From NCBI RefSeq assembly GCF_045037415.1, contig NZ_CP173438.1: a stretch of 64,000 bases of DNA; one strand, 5' to 3'. The notes beneath the pieces are model-generated. The model searched no databases. It was not told the DNA's origin and saw nothing but the letters and a program-made list of their open reading frames with translations. The translations under genes and the position numbers were made by a program. Origin of the DNA: Escherichia coli. GTDB lineage: Bacteria; Pseudomonadota; Gammaproteobacteria; Enterobacterales; Enterobacteriaceae. This document shows positions 13,777 to 25,032 of the stretch, in pieces (within the stretch, counting starts at the first letter, position 1; each line of letters opens with the position of its first letter).

Positions 13777-14343
13777 ATGTACGAGCGTTATGCAGGTTTA
13801 ATTTTTGATATGGATGGCACCATCCTGGATACCGAGCCTACGCACCGTAAAGCGTGGCGCGAAGTATTAGGGCACTACGGTCTTCAGTACGATGTTCAGG
13901 CGATGATTGCGCTTAATGGCTCGCCCACCTGGCGTATTGCTCAGGCGATTATTGAGCTGAATCAGGCCGATCTCGACCCGCATGCGTTAGCGCGTGAAAA
14001 AACAGAAGCAGTAAGAAGTATGCTGCTGGATAGTGTCGAGCCGCTTCCTCTTGTTGAAGTGGTGAAAAGCTGGCATGGTCGTCGCCCAATGGCTGTAGGA
14101 ACGGGGAGTGAAAGCGCCATCGCTGAGGCATTGCTGGCGCACCTGGGATTACGCCGTTATTTTGACGCCGTCGTCGCTGCCGATCACGTCAAACACCATA
14201 AACCCGCGCCAGACACATTTTTGTTGTGCGCGCAGCGTATGGGCGTGCAACCGACGCAGTGTGTGGTCTTTGAAGATGCCGATTTCGGTATTCAGGCGGC
14301 CCGTGCAGCAGGCATGGACGCCGTGGATGTTCGCTTGCTGTGA
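13777..14343 (+). CDS. yqaB: HAD-family sugar phosphatase
   Basis: 188 aa, DMDGT HAD motif I near N-terminus. Confidence 0.88.
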   Translation: MYERYAGLIFDMDGTILDTEPTHRKAWREVLGHYGLQYDVQAMIALNGSPTWRIAQAIIELNQADLDPHALAREKTEAVRSMLLDSVEPLPLVEVVKSWHGRRPMAVGTGSESAIAEALLAHLGLRRYFDAVVAADHVKHHKPAPDTFLLCAQRMGVQPTQCVVFEDADFGIQAARAAGMDAVDVRLL

Positions 14344-14768
14344 GTGAAGCGTTATCGCTTTTCTCGTTGTTTGCCAGTAGTTTTCTCAGCGCTACACTAT
14401 TACCCGGCAACTCCGAAGTCGTGCTGGTGGCAATGTTGCTTTCCGGAGTGAGTCATCCCTGGGTTTTAGTTTTAACAGCAACAATGGGTAATAGCCTTGG
14501 AGGGTTAACTAACGTTATCCTTGGGCGTTTCTTTCCATTGCGTAAAACATCGCGCTGGCAAGAGAAAGCTACCGGCTGGCTGAAACGCTATGGTGCAGTC
14601 ACGCTATTATTAAGCTGGATGCCCGTGGTTGGCGATTTACTGTGTCTGTTAGCGGGATGGATGCGCATCTCGTGGGGACCGGTAATCTTTTTTTTGTGCC
14701 TTGGTAAAGCGTTACGCTATGTTGCAGTTGCAGCAGCTACCGTTCAGGGCATGATGTGGTGGCACTAA
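14340..14768 (+). CDS. yqaA: Small inner membrane protein (DedA/SNARE-associated-like)
   Basis: 142 aa hydrophobic ORF overlapping yqaB stop by 4 nt. Confidence 0.85.
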   Translation: MSEALSLFSLFASSFLSATLLPGNSEVVLVAMLLSGVSHPWVLVLTATMGNSLGGLTNVILGRFFPLRKTSRWQEKATGWLKRYGAVTLLLSWMPVVGDLLCLLAGWMRISWGPVIFFLCLGKALRYVAVAAATVQGMMWWH

Positions 14769-14813
14769 TTGTAGGCCTGCACATATGGTCACCATTACAG
14801 TTATGCTAATTAA

Positions 14814-16397
<1,584 letters not shown>

Positions 16398-16406
16398 CAG
16401 AAAAGA

Positions 16407-16479
16407 AAAAGGCCACTCGTGAGTGGCCAAAATTTCATCTCTGAATTCAGGGATGATGATAACAAATGCGCGTCTTTCA
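16407..16479 (-). ncRNA. micA: MicA (SraD) small regulatory RNA
   Basis: Reverse complement reads GAAAGACGCGCATTTGTTATCATCATCCCTGAATTCAGAGATGAAATTTTGGCCACTCACGAGTGGCCTTTTT, matching the MicA sequence as I recall it, with intrinsic terminator. Confidence 0.85.
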
Positions 16480-16546
16480 TATACTCAGACTCGCCTGGGA
16501 ACAAAGAGTTCAGAAAATTTTAAAAAAAATTACCGGAGGTGGCTAA

Positions 16547-17062
16547 ATGCCGTTGTTAGATAGCTTCACAGTCGATCATACCCGGATGGAAGCGCCTGCA
16601 GTTCGGGTGGCGAAAACAATGAACACCCCGCATGGCGACGCAATCACCGTGTTCGATCTGCGCTTCTGCGTGCCGAACAAAGAAGTGATGCCAGAAAGAG
16701 GGATCCATACCCTGGAGCACCTGTTTGCTGGTTTTATGCGTAACCATCTTAACGGTAATGGCGTAGAGATTATCGATATCTCGCCAATGGGCTGCCGCAC
16801 CGGTTTTTATATGAGTCTGATTGGTACGCCAGATGAGCAGCGTGTCGCTGATGCCTGGAAAGCGGCAATGGAAGACGTGCTGAAAGTGCAGGATCAGAAT
16901 CAGATCCCGGAACTGAACGTCTACCAGTGTGGCACTTACCAGATGCACTCGTTGCAGGAAGCGCAGGATATTGCGCGTAACATTCTGGAACGTGACGTGC
17001 GCATCAACAGCAACGAAGAACTGGCGCTGCCGAAAGAGAAGTTGCAGGAACTGCACATTTAG
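16547..17062 (+). CDS. luxS: S-ribosylhomocysteine lyase (AI-2 synthase)
   Basis: 171 aa, HTLEHL metal-binding motif. Confidence 0.96.
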
Positions 17063-17070
17063 TCAGTTTA

Positions 17071-17107
17071 AGCAGAAGAGGCCGGGCTGGTGAAAACACC
17101 GCCCGGC
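17071..17107 (+). terminator. luxS intrinsic terminator
   Basis: 7-bp stem gccgggc...gcccggc followed by TTTTG. Confidence 0.7.
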
Positions 17108-17112
17108 TTTTG

Positions 17113-18225
17113 TTACCTGTCAGTCATCCGATATTCCACGCTATGTGCTTCATCAGGTTGAGGAACTTCCAGCCTTGAGGCCATCCGCATCACGACCGCT
17201 TCAGGAACTGCATACTCGCGTCTGGCATTTTGCTGGTTCCATTGCGCCCATGGCACTTCCAGATAAACGATTTTTACTCGTGCGCCGTAAGCCGTAAACA
17301 GACTGATGAGCTGGCTGCGCAGCTGGCGGGTAATGTTCGTTGCATTCCAGATGAACGGCTTTTTCTGGCGTAAAAAAACGCGCGCCTCTTCTTTTGCCTG
17401 TTGCACAATACGCCCGGTGGCGGTTTTGTCGTCCGGACTGGCATTGATTCGCCGCCGCATATCATCAAGGCTGATAACGTCCATTCCCTGGCACTGTTCA
17501 CTGATATAGCGATCTTTGCCCATACCCGGTAAGCCACACAGCAAAATAACCTCAAAAGGTTCAGCCTCCCAGGGAACAAAATCAGGAGAACTTTGCTCAT
17601 GAGTCAGGTAGTGCCAGCGTGCGGAATCAGAAACGAACGGGCGCATTTTTCCCCAGCATTGTTGCTCATGGCAAAACAGCTCGAACAGATCGATGCGTTC
17701 CAGCATTGATTGCTGATCCGGGCTTTGGCGACCAAGCAGATCGGCACGAGCAAGCAAAGCGAGCAGACGCGTGTCGATGCGCATTGCAGCCGTGAGCAAC
17801 AAACGCTCCGGTTCCGGACGTTCCAGTAACCATAGCGGTAACCCATGCAGACGCACCAGTGCAACAATTTGCTCGCGCAGCACGAACGGCGTTGGGATAT
17901 CGCGCCATAAAATTTGTCGAGCCGTCAGTTCGCCCCGACGAGCATGACCAGGAGACTGAATACGTCCGTTTTCCTGCACGGTAGTGCTGCGCTTTTCAAC
18001 ATCATGCAATAACGCCGCCGCCCATAAAACTTCCTGCTGTTGAGCGGGGAGTTGCTGGAATTCTGGCAGAGTAATGAGGGCGTTAAGCACCATTTCGGTA
18101 TGTACGCCGACGTCGCCTTCACCATGATGCTCAGGGTCTTGTGGCGTGTGATGCATCTCCTCAACCCAGCTAAAACGCTGACGTAGCGCCGACCAGCGTT
18201 TATCGTCGGTAAGTTGCCAAATCAT
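17113..18225 (-). CDS. Predicted bifunctional RNA/DNA end-healing enzyme: N-terminal HD phosphohydrolase plus C-terminal P-loop polynucleotide kinase (HD-Pnk-like)
   Basis: 370 aa; HD motifs [12 protein letters not shown] and LLHDVEK (H74-D75); Walker A-like GLPGMGKD at 17512-17535; GGAG SD; ATGA overlap with upstream ligase gene; no counterpart at this locus in K-12 as I recall it. Confidence 0.6.
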
Positions 18226-18929
18226 GACTGTTCTCCATAAACGAACTCATGGGCCATCCGCGCCCGTTGCCAGTGGCGTTTCCAGTGCACAGTGGTTTTG
18301 ACATGATTTTTGCGCACATACTTGAAGACGTTATGCGAAAAGTCAGCGACAGAAAACGCATCATGATTTCGGCTGACAATGCCTTCCAGCGTACAGGGTT
18401 GACAGGTTTGCGTATCCCAGGGATCGAATGTGCCGCGCGCATTGGTCAGCGCCAGAAAATCACGTTGCCAGCTTTTTTCATCATTCCCCGGCTGCGGGCC
18501 GGAGATTTCGGGAACGCAGGGGAAATCAAACAGAGCGGCGTAAAACTGCACCTCTTCCCAGCTCAGCCACATATCCTGGCAGCGAACGGCAAACAGGTAA
18601 AAGTCCTGTTCCAGCGCGCGGTATTCAATGGAATGAACGGCGTAGAGATTTTCACCAAACAACTCCAGGTTGCCGAGATCGTTTTTCAGCAGTTGCCAGC
18701 GTTGGCGAATTTTATAGGTCCATGCCGACTGCGTAGGCGTGGCATGGGAGCGGGCAAACACGCCGTAGCGGTTAAGGCAGTTATTTTCGCCATCGAGTTT
18801 TTCTGTGTGCACCAATTGCGTGATGGTCTGTAAATCCTGCCAGTAATCGGTGTTAATGCGGTCATCGCTGGTGGTGCCTGGAGAGAAGGGGTAATGCCAG
18901 GTTCTCCCGTATTTACGTTGGGTATTCAT
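18222..18929 (-). CDS. Predicted ATP-dependent RNA ligase, minimal nucleotidyltransferase domain
   Basis: 235 aa; motif I KLDG (K44, codons at 18789-18800), motif III-like FGE, motif IV LEGIV, motif V KYVRK. Confidence 0.55.
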
Positions 18930-19150
18930 AATAATCCATTATTTTGTGTGTAATAAATGTACGCCCGCGAGGGTGCGAGTTTTGGGGTTAAAAGAAAAAT
19001 GTGAGTATCACCCGCGAAAGCGAGGGCGAAGGAAAAAGAGAATTAACAACCTGAGCGAATGCTCAGAACCGGCTAATGGTGAATGGAAGAGTTTGGGGCG
19101 GCGAAAAGATACACCGAATGAGTGTATAAAACAACCGTTTGCAGAATGAG

Positions 19151-19179
19151 CAAATAAAAAGGGAGCCGCAGCTCCCTTT
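19151..19179 (-). terminator. emrB intrinsic terminator
   Basis: On minus strand: hairpin gggagctgcggctccc followed by TTTTTATTTG, directly after emrB stop. Confidence 0.7.
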
Positions 19180-19186
19180 GGCAACC

Positions 19187-20725
19187 TTAGTGCGCACCGC
19201 CTCCGCCGCCACCTGCGCCAAATGGCGGTTTAGCAAACCACACCAGCCCCAGCAGGACGAGGAATATCCCGGCTGACATCCAGAAGATCTCATTGGCGGA
19301 AATAATCAGCCCCTGATTGGTTATCTGCTGGGCAATCCAGCCTGATGCCTGCTGTTGCGTCATACCAAGCCCTTCCAGTTGACTGTACATCGCCTGAGCA
19401 TTCGGGTTGAACGGGTTTACCGACTCAGTCAACTGTGCATGGTGCAGCGACTCGCGGTTGGTCCACATGGTCGTGGTTATCGACGTGCCGATAGACCCCG
19501 CCAGCGTTCGCGTAAAGTTGGAGAGGCTCGATGCCGCCGCCAGTCGTTCCGGTGGCAAACCGGACAGCGTAATGGTGGTCAGCGGCATAAAGAAGCAGGC
19601 CACCGCAAAACCCTGGATAAACTGTGGCCAGGCCGACGCGCCAAAATCCATACCCGGTTCAAAGGTATAGGCACGCCAGTAGAAGCAGACGGCATACATA
19701 ATAAAGCTGAAGGTTACCAGTCGGCGCATATCCAGTTTATGCGCGAAGCGGCCGATAATCGGCGACAGGATCACCGGAATAATCCCTACCGGCGCAGAGG
19801 CCAGCCCTGCCCACGTCGCCGTGTAACCGTAGACCTCCTGCAACAACTGCGGCAGCAGAACAATCGCGCCGAAGTAGAGCATATACGCGAGGCTGATACA
19901 CAAGCAGCCGATGGTGAAGTTGCGCGACTTAAACAACGACAGATCGACTATCGGGTTATCGTCGGTCAGCTCCCAGACAATCAGGAAGCAGATAGCCACC
20001 ACCGCCACCACGGTGAGGATGATAATTTCCTGTGATGAGAACCAGTCCAGCTCTTTACCGCGGTCGAGCATAATCTGCAGGCTGCCGATACCAATAACCA
20101 GCAGTGCCAGCCCCACGGCATCAATCCGCCGCCGTTCGGTGCGGGTTTCACGTCCGCGCAGAGTTTGCAGTGTCATCAACACCACCGCCACGCCAATCGG
20201 CACGTTGATGAAGAATATCCAGCCCCAGTGGTAATTATCACTGATATAACCGCCGAGGATCGGGCCGCAAATTGGCGCAACAATCACCGTCATCGACCAC
20301 AACGCCAGCGCGATCGAGCGTTTGGCTGGCGGGTAGTTATTCAGCAATAGACTTTGCGAAAGCGGAATTAACGGCCCGGCGACAATCCCCTGAATCACGC
20401 GGAAGAAGATCAGCATATTCAGGCTGCTGGAGACACCACACGCCCACGACGCAATAGCAAAGGCGATGGTGGACCAGAGGAACAGTTTCACTTCCCCGAC
20501 GCGCTTTGCCAGCCAGCCGGTAAGCGGGATCGAGATGGCATTCGCCACCCCGAAAGAAGTGATTACCCACGTTCCCTGGCTGAGCGATGAGCCCAGATTC
20601 CCGGCGATAGTGGGGATCGCCACGTTAGCAATGGTGGAGTCCAGCACCTGCATGAATGTCGCCAGTGACAGCGCAATCGTCATAATGACCAGTTGTGCGC
20701 CTTCCAGCGGTTTTTGCTGTTGCAT
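19187..20725 (-). CDS. emrB: Multidrug efflux MFS transporter, 14-TM permease subunit
   Basis: 512 aa from MQQQKPLEGAQ; downstream of emrA. Confidence 0.93.
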   Translation of the reverse strand: MQQQKPLEGAQLVIMTIALSLATFMQVLDSTIANVAIPTIAGNLGSSLSQGTWVITSFGVANAISIPLTGWLAKRVGEVKLFLWSTIAFAIASWACGVSSSLNMLIFFRVIQGIVAGPLIPLSQSLLLNNYPPAKRSIALALWSMTVIVAPICGPILGGYISDNYHWGWIFFINVPIGVAVVLMTLQTLRGRETRTERRRIDAVGLALLVIGIGSLQIMLDRGKELDWFSSQEIIILTVVAVVAICFLIVWELTDDNPIVDLSLFKSRNFTIGCLCISLAYMLYFGAIVLLPQLLQEVYGYTATWAGLASAPVGIIPVILSPIIGRFAHKLDMRRLVTFSFIMYAVCFYWRAYTFEPGMDFGASAWPQFIQGFAVACFFMPLTTITLSGLPPERLAAASSLSNFTRTLAGSIGTSITTTMWTNRESLHHAQLTESVNPFNPNAQAMYSQLEGLGMTQQQASGWIAQQITNQGLIISANEIFWMSAGIFLVLLGLVWFAKPPFGAGGGGGGAH

Positions 20726-20741
20726 CACACGCACCTCTGGA

Positions 20742-21914
20742 TTAGCCAGCGTTAGCTTTTACGATATCGTCGATCAGTTTATTGACAGGTGCCAGGCTGA
20801 TTTCACGCGCGGTGCTTACCGCGACCGGTGTGGAACGTACTTTGTTTGCCAGTACCTGACCGTCACGGTTAGTGGTATTGACACTCACCAGCGTGGATAA
20901 ACCGATACGCAGCGGGTATTGCTCCAGCTGTTTCTGGTCCAGTTCAATACGCACAGGCAGACGCTGAACGACTTTGATCCAGTTACCGGTGGCGTTTTGC
21001 GCCGGAAGCAGTGAGAACGCGCTACCTGTGCCCATATCCAGACCAACCACTTTACCGGTGTATTTCACATCATCGCCGTAAATATCGGTGGTGATGGTGA
21101 CCGGTTGACCGATACGCATATTGGCAATCTGCGTCTCTTTAAAGTTGGCATCCACCCACATATTGGTGGCTGGAACGACCGCCATCAGCGGCGTCGTTGG
21201 GCTAATTTGCGCCCCAGGCTGTACCGCGCGGCGGGAGACATAACCGGTCATCGGACTGACAATACGGGTACGCTCCAGCGCCAGCCAGGCGTTACGTACT
21301 TCGGTGGCAGCCTGTTGTACGGCAGGCTGATCTTCCAGTTTCGTCCCCAGAATCATCGCCTGATTGGCATTGTATTGTTGAATAGCGACGTCCAGTTGCG
21401 CCTGGGCACTGGTGACGGCGTCGCGGGCGTGTTGCAGCTCTTCGCGACCAATCAGGTTGGCATTGCCCAGCGGCACACGGCGGTTGTAGTCGCTTTGTGC
21501 TTTCGCGAGGGCGATTTTTTGCACCTCAATATTCGCCTGCAACTGTTTGCTGTTAATCATCAGCTGGTGGGTTTGGCGAACGCTGGAAGCCAGTGCAGTT
21601 TTGGCTTTTTCAAACGCCTGGCGAGCATCTGTCGGGTCGAGAGTGACCAGCACGTCGCCTTCTTTTACAAAATCGGTGTTATCGGCCCAGACTTTCGTCA
21701 CGCTGCCAGACACCTGAGACATAATTTGAATCTGATTCCCTGCCACGTATGCGTCATCGGTTTCTTCGAAATGACGCAGTACCAAAAACCAATAAATCCC
21801 TATCGCTACGGCAATAATTATAAAGAGCAAGGTGAGAAGGAGGAGCAGACGCTTACGTTTGCCGCTCTTCTTTACCGGTTGCTGCGGGGTTTGAGTCTCC
21901 GCATTTGCGCTCAT
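20742..21914 (-). CDS. emrA: Multidrug efflux membrane fusion protein
   Basis: 390 aa from MSANAETQ; single N-terminal TM plus coiled-coil. Confidence 0.93.
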   Translation of the reverse strand: MSANAETQTPQQPVKKSGKRKRLLLLLTLLFIIIAVAIGIYWFLVLRHFEETDDAYVAGNQIQIMSQVSGSVTKVWADNTDFVKEGDVLVTLDPTDARQAFEKAKTALASSVRQTHQLMINSKQLQANIEVQKIALAKAQSDYNRRVPLGNANLIGREELQHARDAVTSAQAQLDVAIQQYNANQAMILGTKLEDQPAVQQAATEVRNAWLALERTRIVSPMTGYVSRRAVQPGAQISPTTPLMAVVPATNMWVDANFKETQIANMRIGQPVTITTDIYGDDVKYTGKVVGLDMGTGSAFSLLPAQNATGNWIKVVQRLPVRIELDQKQLEQYPLRIGLSTLVSVNTTNRDGQVLANKVRSTPVAVSTAREISLAPVNKLIDDIVKANAG

Positions 21915-22040
21915 ATTGTTCTCCACGATCTTCTTAACTCATCGGCTGAGCCGACCTGCTTGCCAAAAAGGCCAGCATGTTGCGATGCTGGCCGGTTATT
22001 TTTTCTTTTATAAATCTGGATTTTTGAGCGAGATGACGCG

Positions 22041-22571
22041 TTAGCTCATCGCTTCGAGAACCACACCGCCCTGTTCCATCTGGTCGAGACGGGAGAGCAA
22101 TTTGCGGGTGATTTGCTCGAGCTGGTCTTTTTCTGTTGTGCTGAGCGCGGACCAGAGTTGATGCAGGCAGTTATGCTGCGGCGGTAAAACCTCGCGCAAA
22201 AACTCGTGACCTTTTTCCGTTAATTGCAGATGCAGGCAGCGGCGATCGTTATCGCTTTCACGACGTTCGATCCAACCGCGTTTTTCCAGTTCATCGGCAA
22301 TACGCGTCGCGTTGGTACGGGATGATCCAAGAGCACAACTCAATTCAGAAGGCTGAATACTGTGGTTTTCCTGAGACTCCAGCGTAATCAACGCCATAAA
22401 CAACGTCTCGTTAATCCCCTGAGCCTTCAGCATTTTATTGCGGTTTTCCAGCAGCTTGCTTTGCATATGCATGCAAAGACGGGTCAGAAGGATCTCCTGA
22501 TAAGGAAAATCTTCGTGGCGGCTGGCGCGAAATTTTAGCATTTGTTCAATGGGCGTAAACGAACTATCCAT
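22041..22571 (-). CDS. mprA: MarR-family repressor of emrAB
   Basis: 176 aa, winged-helix MarR domain, upstream of emrA. Confidence 0.92.
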
Positions 22572-22661
22572 TTGGGTATGACCTCATTAATTTCAGCCGA
22601 TATAGTAACGACAGTGACAAATAAAGTAAATGTATTGTTTTAGAAAAATGATTCTTGTGGA

Positions 22662-22997
22662 TTATATAATCGCCATCACTTTCCAGGCGAGCCCATAGGC
22701 CAGCGCACTAAGCAGTGTTGGGATGATAATGCTGCGTGTTTTATAGAAACTGGCACCCAGTACCGCGAAGCCGACCAGTGTGGGCACGAAACGGCGTGTA
22801 TCGTGCATCACTTCTGGTGCGGTAGAGACAACCAGCAGAGCGCATATCGAGGCGATGCCAATGGTGTCGAGCAAAATACCTACCGCGCCACGTTTGGTTG
22901 GGCGGGCATTACCCACACGCAGGCGCAGCGGCAGATAGCGGAAGCAATAATTCGCCGCGCCAACCAGTAACCCAAGCAGCAGAACCTCATAGCTCAT
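22662..22997 (-). CDS. ygaH: Branched-chain amino acid exporter small subunit (AzlD-like)
   Basis: 111 aa hydrophobic ORF overlapping ygaZ. Confidence 0.85.
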
Positions 22998-23724
22998 CGG
23001 GCGCTCCTTGCCAGAATGCCTGGATTAACGCAGTGAGGCAGCCACAGACAATGCCTGCCAGAATGGCGACGGGAATAGAAAATAGCGTTACGCCTGCAAG
23101 GGCACCAACTAACGCTGCGGTAACGCAAAGAGATTGTTTGCGCTGGAAAGAGGCGAGCAGGAAACTCATAAAGAGTGCCGGAAGCATAAAACCTAATGCT
23201 GCTTCAACGGCGGGATAACCTTGCAGCAAGCCGCTGCCGGAGAATGCCCCTATTACCGTACCAAATACCCACGATGACCATGAACTGAAGGCAATGCCGA
23301 TCATCCAGTTTTCGCTCCAGCGGCGATTATTGCGTACCAGTTTTGCGGTTGCGGCGGCAAAAACCTCATCCGTCAGGCCAAACGCCCACAGGGCGGTTTT
23401 CGATTTTTGCAGACGCTGAATAATACGGCTACGCAGTGACGGGCCATACAAAACATGGCGAACATCCATTGCCATGACGGTCAGTGCAGCAACCCACAAA
23501 CTACTCCCGGCTGCCAGCATCGCGGTAATGACGAACTGGCTCGCGCCTGCATAAATGATGCAGGAGAAAAAAACGCTTTCGAGAGGAGAGAATCCCAGAC
23601 GGGTCGCATTCAGACCGAACGCAAAGGCCACCGGAATATAACTAATAACAATCGGTAAACTGTCTTTGCATCCTTCCATGAAGGTCGCCGAACCAGGAGC
23701 AGGCTGTGGAGTAGGGCTTTCCAT
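22987..23724 (-). CDS. ygaZ: Branched-chain amino acid exporter large subunit (AzlC-like)
   Basis: 245 aa polytopic membrane protein. Confidence 0.85.
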
Positions 23725-23847
23725 AGAGTGTACGCTTAACGATTGTTAATATTATAAATAGACTGAATGAATATCTTAACCTTATCAGACTGATGGGCTT
23801 CTTAACACCCTTATAAGTGTAAAGCCACGAAAACGGTTGCTGATTGC

Positions 23848-25032
23848 TTAATTTGCGGCTTCCTGACGATGAAAACCTCGCCACCAGACCAGTAAGTTAA
23901 CCAGGGCAATCGTCGCGCCAGCCAGACACACGCCAGCCCAACTGCCATGTTGCCAGGCTGAGGCTGAAATTAGCGAACCAGCGGCACCGCCAATAAAGTA
24001 GCTGGTCATGTAACCTGCGGTCAGGCGATTACGCGCATCAGGGTGTATTCGATAAATTACCGTCTGGTTAGTGATATGCACGCCCTGCACGGTGAGGTCC
24101 AGCACCAGGATGCCGATAATCAGCGCCAGTACGGAAGTGTGACCAAACCAGATTGCCAGCCATGAAAGTAACAGCAGAAGCAGACCGAAAGTTGTTGTGT
24201 GGTGCGATTTGCCCTTGTCGGCAAAACCGCCCGCCGGACGAGCGCCCAACGCTCCGGCAGCTCCCGCAAGTCCAAACAGACCAATTACACCATCGCTGTA
24301 GTTAAAAGGTGGAGCGGCAAGCAAAAAGGCCATTGAGGTCCAGAGAATGCTGAAGTTGGCAAAGGTCAGGCAGCCCAGCAACGCGCGGGTGCGCAGGATC
24401 TTATCGCTGATAAACATGCTGAAAACGGAACCAAGCAACTGTGGGTAGTTGAGGTGGGTTTCTGATTTCATTTGTGGCAGACCACGCCATAATGCCAGCG
24501 CCATCAGTGCCATTAACACCGAGGCAACCCAAAAGACGGTGCGCCAGCCGCCGAGGTTTGCCAGCAATCCGGCAACGGTCCGTGCGAGTAAGATCCCCAA
24601 TAGCAGGCCGCTCATAATGGTGCCAACCACTTTGCCGCGTTTGTCCGGTGAGGCCAGCGTCGCTGCCAGTGGAACCAGAATTTGTGCCACGACCGAGAAT
24701 AAACCGGTTAATGCCGTACCGAGGATCATCATCGCCAGTGACTGACTGCTGGCAGTGATTAACATACCGCCCGCTGCCAGTAAGGTCATCGAGACAATCA
24801 GGCGGCGGCGTTCAAACATATCACCGAGGGGAACAAGAAACAGCAGACCTGCGGCATAGCCCAACTGCGCGGCGGTAACAATAAAGCCCGCCGAACTGGC
24901 GGAAAGGGAAAAGTTACGCGCGATGGTGTCGAGCAATGGCTGGGCGTAATAGTTACTGGCTACCGCCAGACCGGTGGCGATAGACATCAGCACGATCAGC
25001 GCCGGGCTAAGCTCATGATTAGGTTTAGTCAT
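23848..25032 (-). CDS. ygaY: MFS transporter, intact reading frame
   Basis: 394 aa uninterrupted ORF with 12 predicted TM segments. Confidence 0.8.
   Translation of the reverse strand: MTKPNHELSPALIVLMSIATGLAVASNYYAQPLLDTIARNFSLSASSAGFIVTAAQLGYAAGLLFLVPLGDMFERRRLIVSMTLLAAGGMLITASSQSLAMMILGTALTGLFSVVAQILVPLAATLASPDKRGKVVGTIMSGLLLGILLARTVAGLLANLGGWRTVFWVASVLMALMALALWRGLPQMKSETHLNYPQLLGSVFSMFISDKILRTRALLGCLTFANFSILWTSMAFLLAAPPFNYSDGVIGLFGLAGAAGALGARPAGGFADKGKSHHTTTFGLLLLLLSWLAIWFGHTSVLALIIGILVLDLTVQGVHITNQTVIYRIHPDARNRLTAGYMTSYFIGGAAGSLISASAWQHGSWAGVCLAGATIALVNLLVWWRGFHRQEAAN

Follow-up and report, generated by a model that had tools for sequence, protein, structure and literature searches.

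The spacer between emrB and an accessory RNA ligase/HD-Pnk operon in Escherichia coli: a predicted promoter and a predicted leader with a terminator-like hairpin

An accessory segment replaces the emrB-luxS intergenic region

The window analyzed here, a 64,000-nt stretch of Escherichia coli DNA (assembly GCF_045037415.1, contig NZ_CP173438.1), carries on its minus strand the emrR (22571-22041), emrA (21926-20742), and emrB (20734-19187) genes, followed after a 257-bp gap by an RNA ligase family gene (18222-18929) and a gene for an HD-domain and P-loop polynucleotide kinase (17113-18225). The luxS gene (16547-17062), on the plus strand, runs convergently toward the kinase gene. The emrB stop codon TAA occupies positions 19189-19187 and the ligase ATG positions 18929-18927, and on rereading of the sequence the noncoding spacer delineated in the first-pass annotation, 18930-19186 (257 bp), kept its coordinates. 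RefSeq annotates no feature within this spacer, and the open reading frames that it contains (67 aa on the plus strand, 58 aa on the minus strand) were ruled out by 1- to 2-nt indels in the alignment described below.

When the region was compared with K-12 MG1655 by blastn, homology ended at 17067 and restarted at 19186. The intervening 2,118-bp segment (17068-19185, coding strand minus) comprises the two genes with their spacer and the terminators on either side, and stands in the place of the 57-bp K-12 emrB/luxS intergenic region, which has one hairpin terminator. The cassette had been described at first pass as insulated by terminators on both sides; both hairpins are indeed present, and the description gains in precision if they are counted as part of the accessory segment, since in the comparison with K-12 the segment spans both and replaces the single-hairpin terminator. 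The segment would thus be a clean case of accessory DNA that supplies its own terminators, with the flanking housekeeping genes remaining correctly terminated. It is present as a single copy, on the chromosome only, in 998 of the 5,426 complete E. coli genomes searched (18%), Nissle 1917 among them, a frequency that, together with the fixed emrB/luxS site, makes the locus relevant to E. coli biology. In Nissle 1917 (NZ_CP058217.1), the spacer lies at 1226284-1226540; CFT073 and an ST131 strain are further carriers. Positions 16900-19400 are 100% identical in several complete genomes (SK1144, 81009, Z247, and others), and no mobile-element signatures were seen at the segment ends. Beyond luxS, the MicA sRNA is found at 16407-16478 (minus strand), between gshA and luxS, as in K-12 (Rfam RF00078, 83.9 bits).

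The cassette encodes a ligase/HD-Pnk pair

The upstream gene of the cassette encodes a 235-aa protein that matches PF09414 (E = 1.2e-27) and is named "RNA ligase family protein" in RefSeq. Its motif EKLDGEN is of the KxDG, or covalent nucleotidyltransferase, type, and K44, D46, and G47 are invariant in 19 homologues. The downstream gene encodes a 370-aa protein of the HD-Pnk type, with Pfam matches to AAA_33 (residues 226-355, E = 8.6e-32) and to HD (residues 62-139), the latter at an E value of 0.0087 that falls below Pfam's cut-off. Further matches were obtained to HDIG (E = 4.4e-4), to the HD region of CCA enzymes (E = 1.7e-5), and to the kinase region of bacterial Pnkp; HD...HD motifs (HHGEGD and LLHDVEK) and a P-loop, GLPGMGKD, are visible in the sequence, and the kinase region (query residues 225-350) matches PDB entries 4gp6 and 4gp7, which are titled "Metallophosphoesterase." A PDB sequence search with the ligase returned hemocyanin matches only, which we judged spurious. 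Neither protein matched a PADLOC anti-phage defence model at E ≤ 0.01. Phages have only distant homologues (≤44% identity), and no enterobacterial-type copy lies on a true plasmid.

The HD-Pnk ORF of Runella slithyformis, whose product combines an HD phosphoesterase (N-terminal) with a P-loop 5'-OH kinase (C-terminal), directly follows a ligase ORF and overlaps it; the Runella ligase self-adenylylates, yet of the 3'-OH/5'-PO4 DNA and RNA substrates on which it was tried it sealed none (PMC6097658). The E. coli pair resembles the Runella pair in its overlapping ligase-to-HD-Pnk order, protein sizes, domains, and noncoding spacer before the ligase, and differs from it in that the E. coli locus is without Tpt1 or methyltransferase-HIT neighbors. 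Judged by layout and domains, the two proteins fit a Runella-type RNA end-healing/sealing pair, with activities that are predicted. Ligase homologues at 60 to 64% identity occur in Cytophagales/Chitinophagales, relatives of Runella. This same range separates the E. coli ligase from those of Bacteroidota (Chryseolinea, Chitinophaga), and 80 columns are invariant in 19 sequences; so much identity is unusual between phyla this far apart and points to horizontal spread or to very strong constraint.

The kinase ATG (18225-18223) and the ligase TGA (18224-18222) form a 4-nt ATGA overlap (18225-18222), and a GGAGAA Shine-Dalgarno (SD) sequence lies at 18236-18231, inside the ligase gene, as had been claimed and as can be read directly from the sequence (18222-18236 in all, minus strand). 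This overlap is the commonest junction of the family, found in 35 of 76 loci, and the published Runella pair overlaps too (PMC6097658); translational coupling of the kinase to the ligase, proposed at first pass, is plausible. The ligase itself has a weak SD, also as proposed: GGA at 18937-18935, 5 nt ahead of the ATG, within a translation initiation region (18927-18940, minus strand) that reads AAUGGA followed by the AUG. At the ligase start, AATAATGGATTATYATG is nearly invariant between genera in the spacer alignment. An out-of-frame 8-codon ORF (ATG GAT TAT TAT GAA TAC CCA ACG TAA; 18939-18913, minus strand) begins within the SD region and runs across the ligase start; its ATG is kept in most genera, its stop is not.

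Related loci in other genera

Scanning a single genome of each species yielded 80 ligase loci. The ligase gene lies upstream of the HD-Pnk gene in all 80, and the two are directly adjacent except in L068 and L073, where extra sequence stands between them. In 11 loci, emrB is the upstream gene and the spacer measures 254 to 414 nt; these come from two Escherichia, Klebsiella spallanzanii, three Phytobacter, a Kosakonia sp., an Enterobacteriaceae metagenome-assembled genome (MAG), Enterobacter sp. BIGb0383, and two Superficieibacter. A Salmonella enterica contig (L083) has the same emrB-adjacent arrangement with a 354-nt spacer. The emrB-context loci keep a terminator, a promoter-like site, a conserved block with a second hairpin, and a ribosome-binding region, although the 12 to 13 aligned sequences are related, and their conservation in part reflects ancestry. 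A metagenome scan with the invariant ribosome-binding pattern added no diversity: it returned six near-duplicates of known leaders (Phytobacter/Kosakonia/UBA3516 type) and three chance matches.

In the Salmonella contig, the hairpin that follows emrB (2650-2690; GCCAGTTC...GAACTGGC) is closer to the K-12 terminator than to that of the window, and the cassette promoter lies ~100 nt beyond it. From this K-12-like hairpin, we infer that the two E. coli alleles differ in the terminator retained.

Terminators at both ends of the cassette

At the kinase end, a hairpin at 17081-17107 is followed by TTTTGTT at 17108-17114 (plus strand; -24.4 kcal/mol, z = -3.97). It lies beyond the luxS stop codon (17060-17062), and the kinase stop codon TAA (17115-17113) falls within its T-tract, which bears out the earlier statement that the kinase gene abuts the luxS terminator. 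The hairpin has a proper U-tract in the luxS direction only; we read it as the luxS terminator, convergently common to the kinase gene. Our consensus scanner missed it because of a bulge. Other genera have a GC-rich hairpin of different sequence at the same place.

At the emrB end, the scanner identified a hairpin on the minus strand (19149-19179) with a 9-bp stem at 19179-19158, a UGCG loop, and a predicted stability of -15.7 kcal/mol; the stem is followed by UUUUUAUUU, with the U-tract at 19157-19149. A terminator at this edge of the spacer had been claimed at first pass, and the structure found there, a GC-rich hairpin with a U-tract and a conserved fold, is a predicted intrinsic terminator. 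Three of its nine pairs are changed on both sides between genera, with the compensatory versions GAGC/GCTC, GATC/GATC, GGCC/GGCC, and GACCC/GGGTC. When this hairpin and the second hairpin of the spacer (T1, see below) were evaluated jointly over 12 loci from at least seven genera, 96.4% of cells were paired and six pairs were double-changed, values that 0 of 500 shuffles reached and that are inflated by the relatedness of the sequences; slid controls for the same count gave 20 to 56% paired.

Within 16400-19600 we found 5 terminator-like sites against 4.3 expected from shuffles, which is not above chance and would suit a spacer that is neutral filler from the acquisition of the segment, with its hairpins there by chance. 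We give that explanation very little credence: conservation between genera is block-wise and accompanied by compensatory changes, the elements are preserved in spite of 1- to 2-nt indels, and all emrB-context loci fall into the 254- to 414-nt length class.

A conserved promoter-like site follows the emrB terminator

Directly after the emrB terminator, a predicted σ70-type promoter occupies 19134-19106 (minus strand). It consists of a -35 hexamer TTGTTT (19134-19129), a 17-bp spacer, and a -10 hexamer TATCTT (19111-19106), followed by a GC-rich discriminator and a predicted transcription start site (TSS) near 19099. The E. coli hexamers match the consensus at 7 of 12 positions, and with a threshold of 9/12 the scanner called no σ70 site on the minus strand of the spacer. 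The hexamer pair with its exact 17-bp spacing nevertheless recurs directly after the emrB terminator in 12 of 12 aligned emrB-context loci, and by eye it can also be recognized in the Salmonella contig and in Enterobacillus (L013). In Superficieibacter the site is TTGCAA-17-TATTAT, a 9/12 match, and in Enterobacillus TTGTCA-17-TATTAT, a 10/12 match; the latter genome has the same promoter and start sequence ahead of the ligase though its upstream gene is not emrB. Motifs for σ54 (GG-N10-GC), σ32, and σE and a LexA box were sought in the spacer by eye, and none fits. A literature search found no published TSS, RNA-seq, or sRNA data for the locus. A hairpin AUACACU/GGUGUAU (19129-19110, minus strand) can be drawn within the promoter spacer region in E. 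coli; it is not conserved elsewhere and, being E. coli specific, is probably nonfunctional.

Taken together, the comparisons suggest that the cassette is probably transcribed from a weak σ70 promoter of its own, placed right after the emrB terminator. Such a promoter would lie ~25 bp past the terminator, with the T-tract at the position of an UP element. The first-pass annotation had placed a promoter in the spacer and had argued against read-through from emrRAB. The conserved hexamers and spacing speak for the former; the spacer is more than a simple promoter region, since the predicted start is followed by a conserved block and by hairpin T1. As to the latter, read-through from emrB is unlikely as the main source of transcription because the emrB terminator is strong and covarying. 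One could still suppose that no internal promoter exists, that the cassette is read from emrRAB, and that the two hairpins, as terminators in tandem, do no more than lower this read-through. The weak E. coli hexamers, the location of all the genes on one strand, and the succession of two hairpins after emrB would all suit this arrangement. It is nonetheless distinctly improbable in our view, given not only the strength and covariation of the first terminator but also the conservation of the hexamers and their 17-bp spacing between the hairpins, with 9 to 10 of 12 matches in other genera, and the retention of promoter and start sequence in Enterobacillus where emrB is missing upstream.

The predicted transcript opens with a conserved leader

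The transcript predicted from this promoter probably opens with a conserved, so far undescribed leader of ~170 nt, which the first reading of the sequence had missed. Its start coincides with the most conserved block of the spacer, ~70 nt at 19035-19105 (minus strand); mean column identity is 78% in the block versus 48% in the entire spacer. The block contains CCGCCCC, CUUCCAUUCAC, and AACCGGUU, followed by hairpin T1 and a U-rich tail. T1, a scanner match (19033-19067, minus strand), has its stem at 19067-19050, a predicted stability of -9.6 kcal/mol, and the tail UUGUUAAUUCUCUUUUU. Three of its seven pairs are changed on both sides, 98.8% of cells are paired, and the U-rich tail is present in all loci. 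T1 is terminator-like, a candidate attenuator or sRNA terminator, and, since it lies downstream of the predicted start, transcripts may largely stop short of the ligase. The first ~65 nt of the leader would thus be both its most conserved part and the part that ends in T1 and its tail, with a large share of transcripts probably terminated at ~19049-19035.

Downstream of T1, two more GC-rich hairpins can be drawn on the minus strand. H2 (19009-19028; CGCCC...GGGUG; -10.5 kcal/mol) has CNCCC/GGGUG arms in most aligned loci by eye, and H3 (18964-18979) is an RNAalifold helix with one-sided changes only. Covariation in leader helices other than the two hairpins evaluated jointly above was not significant (144 of 500 shuffles). 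Neither inspection nor RNAalifold revealed an antiterminator alternative to T1, the U-tract of which is interrupted, and no leader peptide was found in the leader. Rfam contains no match to the leader (MicA is the only match within 14000-24000) and none upstream of the ligase in eight related loci.

A covariance model of the block, R1, matched only emrB-context loci among 739 kb, and it recovered the Salmonella locus, which lies outside the training set, with 83 bits. R1 gave no matches in the Serratia, Xenorhabdus, Providencia, or Bacteroidota loci; because it matches none of these lineages, we take the E. coli-type leader to be lineage specific.

Complementarity between the leader and the ligase start

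Near the 5' end of the predicted leader lies a CU-rich box, UCUUCCAUU (19082-19090, minus strand), within which UCCAUU is complementary to the SD sequence AAUGGA and UCUUCC to GGGAGA of ligase codons 8 and 9. The two candidate partners differ in how they emerge. RNAalifold pairs UCCAUU (19087-19082) with AAUGGA; this pairing had a probability of p < 0.01 in the E. coli ensemble and no significant covariation, and we retained it only as one of the two candidates. The E. coli minimum free energy fold pairs UCUUCC (19090-19085) with GGGAGA (18908-18903). At these two codons, GGG AGA (18903-18908, minus strand), synonymous sites do not vary: both codons are invariant in 13 E. coli-type genes, compared with 5 of 52 comparable codons, while other lineages have other synonymous codons and AGA is otherwise avoided in the ligase gene. 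The invariance, which was noticed after the fold had been seen, is suggestive of the UCUUCC:GGGAGA pairing. Among 16 lineage representatives, duplexes between the 5' segment and the start region averaged -11.5 kcal/mol for cognate and -7.9 kcal/mol for noncognate combinations (permutation p < 5e-5), with the E. coli pairing only 6th of the 16. The box, we propose, could base-pair with purine-rich stretches in the neighborhood of the ligase AUG.

The same observations can be arranged differently. The conserved block could be an independent sRNA gene of ~55 to 65 nt, with its promoter at 19134-19106 and T1 as its terminator, that would use its 5' CU-rich region as a seed on purine-rich ribosome-binding sites, the ligase's own included; the ligase would then be expressed only by read-through of T1 or from an unrecognized promoter downstream. 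The order of elements (promoter, conserved and largely unpaired 5' region, hairpin, U-rich tail) is that of such a gene, the strongest conservation in the spacer stops exactly at T1, and both AAUGGA and GGGAGA have their complements in the box. Against it, the U-tail is interrupted (UUGUUAAUU), inspection of the alignment shows no conserved promoter between T1 and the ligase, and within the 739 kb searched with R1 the motif occurs only beside the ligase/HD-Pnk operon, with no Rfam or RefSeq annotation. We consider an independent sRNA unlikely. Attenuation is the most economical reading of the leader, and the two are not mutually exclusive.

Leaders of other lineages

Leaders of other lineages share a different element. 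An (A/T)TGTAAT box, placed 80 to 190 nt ahead of the ligase ATG, recurs in two phyla: 47 of 78 loci have it (within the series L018 to L082), compared with 6.4% of background 300-nt windows. The lineages are Xenorhabdus, Providencia, Proteus, a Neisseriaceae MAG, Chitinophaga, Mucilaginibacter/Pedobacter, Cytophagales, Prevotella/Dysgonomonas, and Raineya, and in several of them the box extends to ATGTAATACCA. At or beside the box lies a complement of the ligase start region, as in CUCUUU:AAAGAG, UUUCUC:GAGAAA, and GCCAUGU:ACAUGGC, and longer complements of 11 bp (CGUCUUGUAAU:AUUACAAGACG) and 12 bp (AUGUAAUUGUUU:AAACAAUUACAU) also occur. We considered whether the box is an AUG-UAA start-stop mini-ORF; two loci with AUG-UGA keep the stop, but UUU and UUA variants lose the start codon, and the idea was not supported.

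In nine loci with a Cytophagales-type leader (L032, L037, L043, L044, L046, L048, L066, L074, and L077), the stretch between ~230 and ~60 nt ahead of the ligase ATG contains a three-helix domain with covariation: a conserved CCCU/AGGG hairpin and then a helix, AAUACCAU/AUGGUAUU, of which the box forms one strand and which encloses a hairpin with several compensatory changes. This leader is a candidate structured RNA, and it has no Rfam match.

One may ask whether the E. coli-type spacer is a lineage version of a family-wide principle, in which the 5' segment of a long leader pairs with the ligase start in two phyla, many members having an (A/U)UGUAAU box. The spacer would then encode a cis-acting leader RNA, undescribed so far, by which an RNA-repair operon is gated, a generalization that we put forward tentatively. 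If it holds, the leader could be a direct sensor of RNA damage or translation stress, opened for instance by cleavage or ribosome stalling, and with such a leader the operon would regulate itself and need no protein regulator.

A model for expression of the operon and its relation to known systems

We think it fairly probable, on the strength of the comparisons above, that the spacer controls an operon of two genes for RNA end healing and sealing and that it travels with these genes as one accessory segment. Transcription of emrRAB would be halted by the strong intrinsic terminator and would begin anew at the weak promoter. Those transcripts that pass T1 would be translated into the ligase from its weak SD and into the kinase by coupling through the ATGA overlap, and the shared convergent hairpin would end both the operon and luxS. 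The predicted net effect is a low basal expression independent of emrRAB, with induction possible at the leader. The type of ligase/HD-Pnk pair and the ordinary operon layout are known; what is new is the unannotated, predicted promoter and the terminator-containing leader. These offer handles for finding the conditions that turn on the widespread ligase/HD-Pnk repair pair, and colicins, toxin nucleases, ribosome-targeting drugs, and phage infection are candidate inducing conditions.

The leader resembles leader-terminator attenuators and SD-sequestering 5' untranslated regions in having a promoter, a terminator-like hairpin well upstream of the first gene, and a 5' sequence complementary to the start; it differs from the attenuators in that no antiterminator, leader peptide, or Rfam match was found. 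A second comparison is with the rtcBA RNA-repair operon of E. coli, which is controlled by RtcR and σ54. Both would be accessory RNA healing/sealing operons that are silent until needed, but here neither a σ54 motif in the spacer nor an adjacent regulator gene was seen, and any control would be exerted by a leader in cis; moreover, the place of RtcB and RtcA is taken by an ATP-dependent KxDG ligase and HD-Pnk.

The RtcB2-PrfH ribosome rescue/repair module is, like the present cassette, a sporadic RNA-repair module of the Enterobacterales (PMC9304027, PMC9223846). The two papers do not mention ligase/HD-Pnk genes, and in this window the module is not linked to the cassette. In three Serratia-like genomes, by contrast with the window, the ligase/HD-Pnk genes (L016, 2181-3916; L084, 1218-2944; L085, 1186-2927) lie directly downstream of rtcB and a prfH-type release-factor-like gene, on the same strand and 56 to 84 nt away, an arrangement that looks like a four-gene RNA/ribosome-repair cluster.
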